The position numbers and the translations under genes were made by a program. Shown here piece after piece: positions 16,555 to 20,504 of a stretch of DNA of 20,531 nt. Below the pieces are notes generated by a model that saw only the letters and a program-made list of their open reading frames with translations, did not search any database and was not told the origin of the DNA. The stretch covers positions 13,578 through 34,108 of the forward strand of contig CAZHRF010000035.1 of NCBI GenBank assembly GCA_964534625.1, in the 5' to 3' direction. How positions within the stretch are numbered: position 1 is the first letter of the stretch; every line of letters starts with the position of its first letter. Source of the stretch: an uncultured archaeon. Lineage in GTDB: Archaea; Asgardarchaeota; Heimdallarchaeia; Heimdallarchaeales; Heimdallarchaeaceae.

Positions 16555-18816
16555 TTATTTTATTTCGAATATCGCTGTAATTTTATTATTGAGAAGATTC
16601 TCATATTCTTCAAAATTACTTAATGATTCATCAGGATATTTTTTAATATGTTCTATTATTTCTGACTGATTCAACCATTTGGCCAATTGCTCGAGTTGAC
16701 TTGAAATCTGATAACTATATTCATCTGTGACAATCATTAAGGTTAGGTTGGCTTTAAGTGAATAAAGAGCAAGTGTATACTTATCTTGTGTAATGCTAAA
16801 GATCCCTGTTGAACCAAACATTTGTTTTGAAAAAGACTTGATTGCACTTAATAATCCTGAAATTAAAATATCATCAAGATTGCTTTCTAAAATTTTTTTA
16901 CTGAAGTATGGTATGCCCGCATTCGAAAGCAACATAACCATATATACATTAGTCTTTTGTATATCAAGTTTAATATCAGCAGTAGAAAGAGTTTGTTCCA
17001 CAAGACTCAGACAAGATAAGATCTTCTCGCGCAGTACACGTTCGGGAAGCGATTGGATAAGTACCTCTTTTTGTTGCGTTTTTCTAAAATAGTTTATAAT
17101 TTTATGTAAAAAAGCGGGTCTTGTGCTCTTTTTATCAAGTTTTTTGAGATCAATATACAATTCTTTATACTTTTTAATTAGATAGTGACTTATTTCAATT
17201 GACTTATTTGTAAGTTCAGTTTTCTCTCTAATCTTTTTGAGTTTAGATTCAAAATAGCTAGGTTCAAGTTCGAAATTCTTCAAGAATAAGTTACAAAAGG
17301 CAATATAAACTTCTGTGATAAACTTATAATATTTGCTCGTTAGGTTCTCAGCTAAAAGACTAAACATTTTAGCGTGTTTCTTGATCTCCTTTTTTAAGGT
17401 TGAATAATGACCCAAATGGGCTCTAAGAAGCAGTGCCCTCAAATAAGTTGTAAAAATACTATAACTTAAACTGTACATTTCGTGTTGATTGGCTTCCATT
17501 AAACTACTATTTAACAACGAACATGCTGTTGATAAATTAAGTATTTTTAATTCAATTAATCCTTCATAAAGTGTTAGCCAAAATTGGAACGATTTGTCTT
17601 CTATATCTTCTGCACGTTTTTTTGCTAGATCTAAAATATAGTTAGATTCATCATACTTATCTAAATGTGTTGCTATTAAGGCCAAAAACGCCAATCTGTT
17701 TGGGAGTGTTTTTTCGTCTTGGACGAGGATATCTTTCAATTTATTGTATATAACTATAGTTTCTTCTTTCCATTCACTCTTATTGACCACAAGCTCAAGT
17801 AGTTGCATGCCAGTAACTATAACCTTGTAAAATTGTTGTTTGGCTAAATAGTGTAGATATACTTGATGTAAAGCAGCGATTGCTTTGTCAACTTGACCTT
17901 GTTTTCGATAATTAAGTGTTTGGTTACTTAAAGCTGCCATTTCTGCATCTTTGTCGGCAATTTCTTTAGCTAGGTGAATACTTTTATCAAAAAAATCTAT
18001 AGATAGATCAAGATTACCATAATCGGTGGCCACTGTGCCAAAGAGATTGTAAACAGCTGCTAAAATAGACCTGATAGGAAGGGATATGAAAAGATCTTTG
18101 TTTTCGTCCCATAATGCTAAAGCTTTGTCTAAGTGTTGAAGGCGGTGAAAATACCATCCTTTATTGATCAAGTATGACACTTTATATTTATTAAGTAGGG
18201 TAGTACATGCTTTAAGATTTGTGAGTTCATTGGTTTTTAAATATTCAGAAAATTTAGATAAAAACTTTTGATAGATAGATAACCGAAAGGCCAATTCTTT
18301 TGTCTTAATTCCAAAATCACTGGAAAGACAAAGAACCTCTAATGCTTCGCCATATATTAGAAAAGAATGAACTGATATATTTATTGCAGTAAATGAAGGT
18401 AAAAACTCTTTTGAGCTAGAAATATTGAGTACTTCAAATACGGTTTTTTCCCCTTTTTCAAATTGCTTACTATAAAGAAAATCTTTTGCAGAAACTATTT
18501 TTACAATGGCCTCATTAGAAAATTTTTTCTTAATGTCTGCTATTTTTGATTGGTACTCTGGGATGTTTTTACTAAGTCCTAAGAAAAGTTGAAATAAGAA
18601 AGAAAAATCTGTGCTAATTAGAGGTGAACTACTATCTAAAAGTGAAAGAACAGCATCTCCTAATTTGTACTGAAATTCTTGAAAAGTGTGTGTTGTTGTG
18701 TGTGTGTGTGTGATACTGTTATTTATCTCTTTTAGTAACAATTTTCGTGTATTTACAGATAACAGATTGATTAAATATTGATAATCTGCAGGAATTTTTT
18801 CTTTATTATAATTCAT
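16555..18816 (-). CDS. TPR/alpha-solenoid protein with C-terminal longin-like domain (753 aa)
   Basis: TPR-like repeats (YNLFGTVATDYGNLDLSIDFFDKSIHLA; LSNQTLNYRKQGQVDKAI). The C-terminal about 130 aa (16555-16950) read VYMVMLLSNAGIPYF...LISGLLSAIKSFSKQMFG. Confidence 0.82.
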   Translation of the reverse strand: MNYNKEKIPADYQYLINLLSVNTRKLLLKEINNSITHTHTTTHTFQEFQYKLGDAVLSLLDSSSPLISTDFSFLFQLFLGLSKNIPEYQSKIADIKKKFSNEAIVKIVSAKDFLYSKQFEKGEKTVFEVLNISSSKEFLPSFTAINISVHSFLIYGEALEVLCLSSDFGIKTKELAFRLSIYQKFLSKFSEYLKTNELTNLKACTTLLNKYKVSYLINKGWYFHRLQHLDKALALWDENKDLFISLPIRSILAAVYNLFGTVATDYGNLDLSIDFFDKSIHLAKEIADKDAEMAALSNQTLNYRKQGQVDKAIAALHQVYLHYLAKQQFYKVIVTGMQLLELVVNKSEWKEETIVIYNKLKDILVQDEKTLPNRLAFLALIATHLDKYDESNYILDLAKKRAEDIEDKSFQFWLTLYEGLIELKILNLSTACSLLNSSLMEANQHEMYSLSYSIFTTYLRALLLRAHLGHYSTLKKEIKKHAKMFSLLAENLTSKYYKFITEVYIAFCNLFLKNFELEPSYFESKLKKIREKTELTNKSIEISHYLIKKYKELYIDLKKLDKKSTRPAFLHKIINYFRKTQQKEVLIQSLPERVLREKILSCLSLVEQTLSTADIKLDIQKTNVYMVMLLSNAGIPYFSKKILESNLDDILISGLLSAIKSFSKQMFGSTGIFSITQDKYTLALYSLKANLTLMIVTDEYSYQISSQLEQLAKWLNQSEIIEHIKKYPDESLSNFEEYENLLNNKITAIFEIK
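18686..18712. repeat. Dinucleotide microsatellite (TG)8 plus (GT)4 in the 5' part of the TPR-longin CDS
   Basis: (TG)8 at 18697-18712 and GTGTGTGT at 18686-18693. Encodes THTHTTTHT at codons 36-44. Confidence 0.92.
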
Positions 18817-18817
18817 T

Positions 18818-18886
18818 ATATTAATGTACTTGGTTGAAATATATTAATGTACTTGGTTGAAATATATTAATGTACTTGGTTGAAAT
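18818..18886. repeat. Perfect 23-bp tandem repeat x3, 1 nt upstream of the TPR-longin start codon
   Basis: ATATTAATGTACTTGGTTGAAAT at 18818-18840, 18841-18863 and 18864-18886, with no spacers. Confidence 0.98.
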
Positions 18887-19080
18887 TTTAGTTGATAAAT
18901 ATTGCATTACATCTGTGTGCTGCATTACACATCCCTTTCTTTTACTACATATAGTCCCATTATCTGGGGGAGATGGAAAATTACTTACAATACAATAAAA
19001 AAAAAGTGTCTTTTTTTTGAAAAAATGCATGTATTTAGATTTGTTCTGAGGCGATTTCTGAAATTGAAACAAAAAAACAT

Positions 19081-19146
19081 AATATTTAAATATTTGCTTT
19101 ATTTTATTTCATATAACAAATCTTGGTTGCACATCAACCTGATTTG
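19081..19146 (+). promoter_or_regulatory. Putative promoter and inverted repeat upstream of the caspase-like gene
   Basis: Palindrome AATATTTAAATATT at 19081-19094 contains TTTAAATA. Inverted repeat CAAATC-TT-GGTTG-CACAT-CAACC-T-GATTTG at 19117-19146. Confidence 0.45.
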
Positions 19147-19157
19147 AAGTGATAAAG

Positions 19158-20504
19158 ATGAAAAAAAGAGCAATAATTGGTTTAATGGTCTTAACAGCCA
19201 TATTAATTGGGATTGTACCATCTAATGGAATGCACAGGGCACCTCCTGGCGCATCTATTGTACAAATAACCTCGCCTACTAACGGGGCTACTGTAAGTGG
19301 TACAGTAACAATCGAACTATCTAAGTCTGCAGATATCTACATTGATGAAGTAAAAGTAGCAAGTGGTGTTTCCTCATACAATTGGGATACAACCGCTTAT
19401 GCTGATGGATCTCATGTAATCCAAGCTCAAGGGAGCAGAGGTTACGATGCAGATCAAATATCTGTGACTGTTAATAACGGTGGAAGTACTCCTGAAGACA
19501 ATCCTCCGGTAGTACTAATCGAAAGTCCAGCAAGTGGAGCCACAGTAAGTGATACTGTTTCTATTCAAGTTTCTGTGACTGATGAAGATTCTTTAACTGC
19601 TGATATATACATTGATGGTTCATATGTGATTAGCGCTAACAGTTATAGTTGGGATACAACCGCTTATGCTGATGGTGTATATTCTATTTACGCTGAAGCT
19701 ACAGATAGTGCTAGTCAAACTGGTTCTGATGAGATATCTGTAACTGTTGATAATTCTGGTTCGGGAGAAGAACCCCCTTCAGGTGGCGATGGGATAGTTA
19801 ACAAATATGCTGTTATAGTGGGTATTTCCGATTATGAAGCAATAAGTGATCTATCTTACTGCGATGAAGATGCTAATGATATGTATGCTCATTTTAACTC
19901 CCTTGGTTATGAAGTAGAAGTTTATGGGGATCATACAAATTCATATACACACTATACCGGTTTGGCAACGGAAGCTAATGTTAAATCTGCTGTAGCCAAT
20001 ATGATCAATAAAGCTGATGAAGATGATATAATAGTATTCATTACTTCTGGTCATGGTGGAGCATATACGAATGGACCACCTCATAGCCGATATCAATACT
20101 TATGCATGTGGGATACAAATAGCGGAGAAGATGGTGAGGATGGTATTATTACCGATACTGAATTCCAAAATATGTTCGCTAGCATAGTTAGTAGAACATT
20201 CATATTCATAGATCACTGCTACGCTGGTGGTATGAATGAAGTTATGAATGTTGCTAATAGTCATCTCATTTACATGGCCACAACTTGTACCGATAATGGT
20301 TATGGCTATGATTACCCTTCAGCAGAAAATGGCGCATGGACACATTACTTCCTAGAAGTTGCTTGGCAGCAATATTATGGTGGATCAGCTACTGTATCGA
20401 TGGAAGATGTATTTGCTTATGCCCACTCCGTTTATCCTTATGGTGGCGGAGACGAACCTCAACAATTTGATGGAAATACGGGTAGCTACTTTTATGTAGT
20501 TTAA
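19158..20504 (+). CDS. Secreted caspase-like peptidase (C14 family) with two N-terminal bacterial Ig-like domains
   Basis: Signal peptide MKKRAIIGLMVLTAILIGIV. Two Big-type repeats (ITSPTNGATVSG / IESPASGATVSD...WDTTAYADG). C14 motifs KYAVIVGISDY, DEDA, TSGHG (His codon at 20052) and FIDHC (Cys codon at 20217). ATG 19158 preferred over GTG 19149. Confidence 0.88.
   Translation: MKKRAIIGLMVLTAILIGIVPSNGMHRAPPGASIVQITSPTNGATVSGTVTIELSKSADIYIDEVKVASGVSSYNWDTTAYADGSHVIQAQGSRGYDADQISVTVNNGGSTPEDNPPVVLIESPASGATVSDTVSIQVSVTDEDSLTADIYIDGSYVISANSYSWDTTAYADGVYSIYAEATDSASQTGSDEISVTVDNSGSGEEPPSGGDGIVNKYAVIVGISDYEAISDLSYCDEDANDMYAHFNSLGYEVEVYGDHTNSYTHYTGLATEANVKSAVANMINKADEDDIIVFITSGHGGAYTNGPPHSRYQYLCMWDTNSGEDGEDGIITDTEFQNMFASIVSRTFIFIDHCYAGGMNEVMNVANSHLIYMATTCTDNGYGYDYPSAENGAWTHYFLEVAWQQYYGGSATVSMEDVFAYAHSVYPYGGGDEPQQFDGNTGSYFYVV
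19382..19675 (+). repeat. 27-bp identical direct repeat in the duplicated Ig domains
   Basis: TTGGGATACAACCGCTTATGCTGATGG at 19382-19408 and 19649-19675, 267 nt (89 codons) apart. Confidence 0.9.

Follow-up and report, generated by a model that had tools for sequence, protein, structure and literature searches.

A probable duplication-born core promoter before a TPR-longin gene of an Asgard archaeon

The locus and its genes

The window, i.e. the whole stretch of DNA that was analysed, comprises 20,531 nucleotides (C35:13578-34108 of the MAG of an uncultured archaeon of the Heimdallarchaeaceae) and comes from a genome with a GC content of 32%. We were concerned with a gene on its minus strand and with the intergenic region of 332 bp that lies between it and a divergent gene. 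The features are as follows, with scores in bits taken from the promoter matrix described below.

16555 to 18816, minus strand: gene encoding 753 aa; the N-terminal ~200 aa are unique, the middle is TPR-like and the C-terminal part has a longin fold
~16567 to 16947, minus strand: longin-fold domain, residues ~624-750 (AlphaFold2 model and Foldseek)
17863 to 18060, minus strand: TPR-like part, residues 253-318 (sub-threshold Pfam match)
18697 to 18712, minus strand: (CA)8 tract, nt 105-120 of the coding sequence, codons 35-40
18817 to 18886, minus strand: array of three 23-bp units (copies 18886-18864, 18863-18841 and 18840-18818) plus a trailing A
19005 to 18997 and 19025 to 19020, minus strand: T9 and T6 runs, separating the array from the far TATA box
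19085 to 19092, plus strand: palindromic box TTTAAATA (the far TATA box), scoring 12.8 bits (plus strand) and 11.2 bits (minus strand)

An in-frame stop lies at -30 to -28, and the next start codon in the frame is ATG 18816; besides it there is no ATG, GTG or TTG before codon 26. Residues 253-318 of the encoded protein match TPR_12 of Pfam with 26.6 bits (E 6.8e-6), the cut-off being 30.1 bits. The last ~140 residues are common to ~50 clusters, mostly of proteins of ~700 aa. The C-terminal domain was folded by AlphaFold2 using an alignment of 27 homologues, giving a model with a pLDDT of 85.3 and elements in the order E-E-H-E-E-E-H-H-H. The modelled topology is beta-beta-alpha-beta-beta-beta-alpha-alpha, as expected of a longin domain. 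Foldseek matched the model with TRAPP Bet5/Trs23, Sec22b, VAMP7 and sedlin (E 3e-4 to 1e-3, TM 0.45-0.61), and roadblock/LAMTOR proteins scored about as well as longin domains. No longin domain of Pfam exceeded its curated threshold, the sole match being Sybindin (E 0.064, 13.8 bits vs a cut-off of 25), and one homologue matches Fuz_longin_1 at E 0.005. Judged by the model, the label TPR-longin appears reasonable at the level of the fold.

The gene is one of ~10 paralogues in the genome. No orthologue was found in 40 related genomes, where the best identity was 26% and the matches were to paralogues only; none of the paralogue loci in these relatives lies next to caspase-like or formamidase genes. 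A search of 5.8 billion proteins returned only the protein itself, and no close relative. Large lineage-specific expansions of Roadblock/longin proteins have been described in Asgard archaea (10.1101/2020.10.19.343400).

The divergent gene encodes an Ig-Ig-caspase-like protein, and has its ATG at 19158 with the Shine-Dalgarno (SD)-like sequence GAAGTGAT. The GTG at 19149 is probably not its start. The TTTAAATA box, around which there is a perfect palindrome AATATTTAAATATT at 19079-19098, is the strongest box of the intergenic region and lies 73 nt before ATG 19158. It is probably the promoter of the divergent, SD-led caspase-like gene, and the palindromic box may be bidirectional. Oligo-T tracts terminate archaeal RNA polymerase, and the T6 and T9 runs are likely to stop minus-strand transcripts that come from upstream.

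Other functions of the intergenic region were considered and rejected. The would-be leader of 273 nt running from the far box is unstructured (z = -0.46) and there is no Rfam match at E <=1 in 18600-19300, and on these grounds a non-coding RNA was discarded. The array is also traversed by an upstream ORF (18821-19072, minus strand), for which Pfam gave no match; all frames reach the TAA of the unit within three units, and we judge the ORF fortuitous. A scan for promoters and terminators of bacterial type gave nothing above shuffled controls, save one weak hairpin near the caspase-like gene.

The tandem array

In the array ATTTCAACCAAGTACATTAATAT occurs three times in succession without a mismatch (18886-18818, minus strand), followed by A at 18817 and then the ATG at 18816-18814. 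The trailing A is also the first base of the 23-bp unit. The array spans -70 to -1 relative to the ATG of the TPR-longin gene, i.e. it directly abuts the start codon. Tandem Repeats Finder applied to 18817-18886 returned a period of 23, 3.0 copies and 100% matches, with a score of 140, in agreement with the triplicated 23-bp unit before the ATG that had been noticed from the sequence alone. The 46 mismatch-free repeated bases cannot be explained by chance.

Allowing up to three mismatches, the 23-bp unit occurs nowhere in the genome (3.37 Mb in 120 contigs) but at these three places, and it was not found in any of the 40 related genomes. Exact-pattern searches of JGI metagenome contigs with the unit junction and with the first 41 nt of the gene gave no match. 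We also looked for degenerate older copies of the unit in the flank. The best agrees at 16/23 bases in a shifted register beside the array, and is equalled in ~19% of random intergenic segments; it was therefore rejected.

Promoter layout in this genome

A leaderless layout has been described for most archaea (PMC6028130, PMC4983044), with the promoter box ~26 nt before leaderless starts (PMC6028130). We examined the layout in this genome using the upstream regions of 2,515 long ORFs; these are crude calls, taken from the first ATG and of at least 100 aa. In genes with an SD-like word the positions -12 to -6 are rich in G. Genes without an SD word exhibit an A-rich patch at -35 to -32, then T, and then A across -30 to -22. 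Among the 1,772 genes of the latter kind, TATA-like octamers start 90 times at -31, 120 at -30, 106 at -29 and 69 at -28, over a background of ~20-30 per position, i.e. there is a peak of about five-fold with its mode at -30. There is no such peak for the SD genes. A matrix trained on the peak sites of the no-SD genes, and hence on the same crude ORF calls, corresponds to an A-rich BRE followed by TTTWWATA. At strong leaderless promoters T is the commonest base at -1 (50%).

The sequence-only reading had cited TATA-like boxes before three other genes of the window. All are present: TTTAATAA at -30 of 9536, CTTATATA at -33 of 10926 and TTTTAATA at -32 of 14893.

A second box at -65 to -45 was found for 9/288 leaderless-type genes, which is not above the background of 7.6%. 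Tandem TATA boxes as a general design of this genome were rejected, since second boxes are no commoner at leaderless genes than elsewhere.

The unit junctions resemble a leaderless core promoter

Each junction between units of the array reads TTAATATA. The sequence occurs three times.

18840 to 18847, minus strand: proximal junction box TTAATATA, -31 to -24; proposed TATA box, with predicted transcription start site (TSS) at 18817/18816
18863 to 18870, minus strand: distal junction box TTAATATA, -54 to -47; possible second promoter, with predicted TSS at ~18840/18839
18817 to 18824, minus strand: third TTAATATA, made of the unit end and the trailing A, -8 to -1, 6.8 bits

The positions of the first two are those that had been proposed in the sequence-only reading, with one box at -31 to -24 and another 23 nt upstream. 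The third is too near to the ATG to serve that start codon.

In its context (caagtaca-TTAATATA-tttcaa) the junction scores 7.7 bits on the genome-trained matrix, at -31 and at -54. A score of at least 7.7 bits occurs at only 0.13% of intergenic positions, and at -33 to -28 it is found for 12.2% of no-SD genes vs 0.9% in control windows, giving a likelihood ratio of ~13. On the opposite strand the junction reaches only 3.1 bits, and therefore the box points towards the gene. The 8 nt upstream of the box are caagtaca; A at -3, -6 and -7 relative to the box fits the BRE, whereas the G at -5 and the T at -4 deviate from it. There is no SD sequence before ATG 18816, i.e. no word of GGTG/GAGG type at -16 to -4, and the start of the box at -31 falls in the genome-wide peak of -31 to -28. 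The bases at -2/-1 of the TPR-longin gene are T/A, so that -1 is A. Initiation at this A (18817) would restore a pyrimidine-purine step, placing the start of the box at exactly -30 and giving a leader of 1 nt. Among recognisable sequences, the junction boxes are the only candidate TATA-box promoter for the TPR-longin gene. We infer that the box is used and that transcription starts at the predicted TSS.

The dependence of the boxes on copy number was explored using modelled alleles. With one copy, nothing within 130 nt of the ATG reaches 3 bits; the sequence-only reading had stated that the box would be missing from a single-copy allele, and this is borne out by the model. A two-copy allele has one box at -31, and a three-copy allele has boxes at -31 and -54. 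Every further copy adds another box 23 nt upstream, and the number of boxes is thus the number of copies minus one. On going from two to three and then four copies the proximal box is unchanged and upstream boxes are only added. When ~40,000 random duplications of 23 bp were simulated in intergenic DNA, 0.64% yielded a junction-spanning box of at least 7.7 bits, a statistic that is post hoc and refers to one locus. The rarity of such a junction box, together with the distance required from the start codon, makes chance unlikely.

Thus the proposal that the array builds the core promoter of the gene holds in silico, in the leaderless position of the box, its match to the genome consensus and the boxless one-copy model. 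We consider it probable that this is a core promoter born by duplication before the TPR-longin gene. The course of events could have been as follows. A 23-bp segment directly before the TPR-longin start codon would have undergone a recent, lineage-specific tandem triplication. The AT-rich end of the unit (TTAATAT) would thereby have been joined to the A of the next unit, generating a TATA box, with the proximal box 31 nt before the ATG at the spacing of the leaderless genes of this genome. Binding of TBP/TFB at the proximal box would then lead to a transcription start at the ATG or 1 nt before it (18817/18816) and a leaderless mRNA. The second junction would be a redundant upstream copy, perhaps giving a minor transcript with a leader of ~23 nt. 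It is possible that the distal box gives a leader of ~23-24 nt that has no SD site. Two TSSs are known for 7.5% of Haloferax genes, in most cases giving a leaderless and a leadered transcript (PMC4983044); the two promoters of such genes are not copies arising from a perfect tandem repeat. The simplest reading would be that the duplication was kept for having made a working promoter. None of the 40 relatives has an orthologue that would show a one-copy ancestral state.

Alternative explanations of the array

Assembly of a MAG can go wrong at short tandem repeats, so that the array might be an artefact and the true genome single-copy. Logan contigs are built from a 31-mer graph (k=31), in which repeated 31-mers need a 23-bp unit to be present at least three times. 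In SRR7048224 the Logan contig extends from the gene exactly 30 nt into the array and so crosses one unit junction; on the far side, a contig of SRR7048228 that is also present in four other samples runs into the array for exactly 30 nt and breaks off. The contigs from both sides stop at k-1 bases because the unit is present at least three times, and therefore the samples hold at least three copies. Since the contigs break within the array this is a lower bound only, and minority alleles are not readable. The sequence-only reading had allowed that reads might show one copy; instead the independent contigs imply three or more. With contigs from at least six runs crossing the unit junction and breaking 30 nt in from the two sides, and a 69-bp array that is below the typical read length, the array is almost certainly not an artefact. 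Over ~20 kb there is 100% identity between the MAG and the sample contigs compared, which come from several runs. The samples represent a single clonal population, in which divergence between samples cannot show; the assemblies moreover give the consensus sequence only.

An array that is real might still be a neutral product of slippage with no promoter role, the gene being transcribed from elsewhere and the junction boxes being incidental AT-rich matches. There are ~10-20 short intergenic arrays in the genome, and TATA-like words come easily in AT-rich DNA. Moreover, the palindromic box at 19085-19092 reaches its 11.2 bits on the minus strand too, and could be an alternative origin of transcripts. 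Yet the T6 and T9 runs lie between this far box and the gene, and the one-copy model has no other site of 3 bits or more inside 130 nt. The position and score of the junction box (likelihood ratio ~13) also argue against incidental matches, as does the finding that just 0.64% of random duplications give such a box. We regard neutral slippage as unlikely. The three units might otherwise be iterated binding sites, i.e. operators for a transcription factor with the candidate core CAACCAAG. This core also occurs once near the divergent caspase-like gene, CTTGGTTG is found again at 19122-19129 in the same intergenic region, and there is a near-palindrome TACATTAATATA inside the unit. However, CAACCAAG is not enriched in intergenic DNA, with 15 intergenic sites (4 of them here) vs 78 coding. 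The copy at 19122 agrees with the unit at 14/23 bases, which is within chance for a region of 330 nt, and neither the remainder of the genome nor the 40 relatives contain the unit. Operators are thus very unlikely, and CAACCAAG/CTTGGTTG was rejected as a regulatory motif for want of enrichment in intergenic DNA. Replication-origin iterons and a CRISPR-like array were also rejected, as the units are contiguous without spacers; no orc1/cdc6 or cas gene was found among the eight ORFs of the window that were scanned against Pfam.

The (CA)8 tract and the possibility of a contingency locus

The sequence-only reading had coupled the array with the (CA)8 tract lying about 105 nt away, and the coordinates confirm this distance. 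Nowhere else in the 3.37 Mb of the genome is there a CA/TG run of at least six units, and only three other dinucleotide runs reach eight units or more. Gain or loss of one CA unit would lead to a protein truncated at residue 52-60. No length variant of the (CA)n tract is on record, there being a single protein sequence in the 5.8 billion proteins.

The two repeats might together constitute a contingency locus, in which the array expands and contracts often, setting promoter strength or start site, while (CA)8 toggles the reading frame. The outcome would be heritable, reversible variation in a TPR-longin regulator. Two rare types of repeat lie 105 nt apart on one gene, both within the promoter or the 5′ coding region; (CA)8 is rare in this genome as set out above, the array is one of ~10 perfect non-triplet arrays, and a rough post-hoc estimate of the probability of such a pairing within 150 nt is ~0.004. 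The truncation caused by a one-unit change in the CA tract and the relation of box number to copies minus one both fit with this reading, and there are precedents in bacteria (PMC12817950, PMC8262952). Against it, no variant allele is seen, with one protein sequence on record and sample contigs that are all identical (as consensus sequences only). An array of three 23-bp copies is short and expected to be modestly unstable, and changes from two to three to four copies leave the proximal box as it is. Two other promoter arrays, on contigs C42 and C28, are invariant across samples that are themselves one clonal population, and the genes that follow the other arrays are unrelated (DUF498, RadA, a DNA methylase and others). 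The sequence-only reading had suggested a scan for repeats abutting other TPR or longin genes. Upstream microsatellites are present in 2/9 other TPR-longin paralogues, for a base rate of 6.3% (P ~0.11), and so, leaving out the index gene, the association (P ~0.1) is not significant. Frequent expansion and contraction of the array coupled with frame toggling is quite unlikely in our estimation. That a promoter minisatellite adding a TATA box per unit and an in-frame (CA)n on/off switch make this a true archaeal contingency locus is distinctly unlikely.

The two paralogues with upstream microsatellites have (TTGTC/TTGTT) x ~12 at C26:31338-31396, ~200 nt upstream of the gene, and (TTTTTA/TTCTTA) x ~7 at C23:7079-7122, ~45-90 nt upstream.

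Comparison with known promoter repeats

The TPR-longin array belongs to a known class of promoter tandem repeats, of which the nearest examples on record are bacterial. In Mycobacterium tuberculosis the dop promoter is multiplied by duplication of 57 bp, with a copy number that varies among and within cultures, and the repeat has been proposed as a transcriptional modulator (PMC12817950). As would be the case here, a short unit bearing promoter elements has been tandemly duplicated directly upstream of a gene, and copy number sets the number of promoters. However, the dop promoters are bacterial, of sigma type, and contained whole within the units, whereas here the promoter would be of the archaeal TATA/TFB kind with its box made at the junction. 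In addition, variation among strains and cultures was shown for dop, while the present array is known from one clonal population. In Haemophilus influenzae hmw1A the number of 7-bp repeats between two promoters grades expression (PMC8262952). The two systems share a repeat tract lying between or overlapping promoter elements, but there are 13-24 copies of a 7-bp unit in hmw1A compared with three of 23 bp here. Moreover, experiment showed that more repeats lower expression from the upstream promoter of hmw1A, whereas here added copies are predicted to add TATA boxes.

With a TATA-like box ~26-30 nt before the start codon and no SD sequence, the proposed junction promoter resembles archaeal leaderless BRE/TATA promoters. 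According to PMC12993045, which cites Reiter et al. 1990, the TATA box has a role in start-site selection. The (CA)8 tract is similar to the simple sequence repeats (SSRs) of coding-region phase variation in prokaryotes (PMC3315296), in that it is a two-base repeat close to the 5′ end of its gene and that changes in unit number would shift the frame; it differs in having no observed length polymorphism. No account of a TATA box formed where copies of a perfect tandem repeat meet came up in a literature search, and none of phase variation driven by repeats in Asgard archaea, although such absence is no proof; the search likewise returned no paper on SSR-based phase variation in archaea.

Provided that the junction box is used, the locus would be a clean natural example of how a core promoter can arise by tandem duplication of a short segment; the TBP/TFB system concerned is common to archaea and eukaryotes. 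A series with one, two, three and four copies would be a simple template for the effect of tandem TATA boxes on the choice of start site. The array adjoins a member of the longin-domain families for which Asgard archaea draw interest. Should copy number or the CA tract be variable, the repeat-driven phase variation of bacterial pathogens would be extended to free-living Asgard archaea, and if the contingency reading were true, a eukaryote-like TPR-longin regulator would provide the earliest description of repeat-driven phase variation in them. We note that this is an observation at a single locus of an uncultured organism, and that the concept is already known in bacteria.

Other arrays in the genome and the ends of the contig

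A 26-bp unit repeated 2.6 times is found at C42:21083-21150, directly before a DUF498 gene (ATG C42:21165). There is a 9.8-bit box at -30 of this gene and an identical one 26 nt upstream, i.e. the layout is as at the TPR-longin array. This array is identical in at least six Logan sample contigs. At C28:38205-38235 a 13-bp x 2.4 array touches an 8.5-bit TATA box at -29 of a RadA/Rad51 gene, and it is identical in the samples checked. Nothing can be concluded from the invariance of both, given the 100% identity of all sample contigs with the MAG. There are ~11 arrays, and by a rough estimate ~6% of intergenic DNA lies in such promoter cores, so that two or three arrays placed in this way are at most a weak enrichment. 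The perfect intergenic arrays at C3:87574-87659 (17 bp x 5.1) and C25:18286-18390 (37 bp x 2.8) have no box at leaderless distance.

A perfect 30-bp x 2.8 repeat lies at positions 1-85 of the window, inside an ORF at 2-1444 on the minus strand. Its period is divisible by three, and it is therefore an in-frame protein repeat at the window edge. At the other end, Logan contigs run from the end of C35 (20477-20531 of the window) into contig C44, from base 25343 downwards, with an overlap of 55 nt. The two MAG contigs are therefore adjacent, and the next genes beyond the end of C35 are PadR and a HAAS-domain gene.
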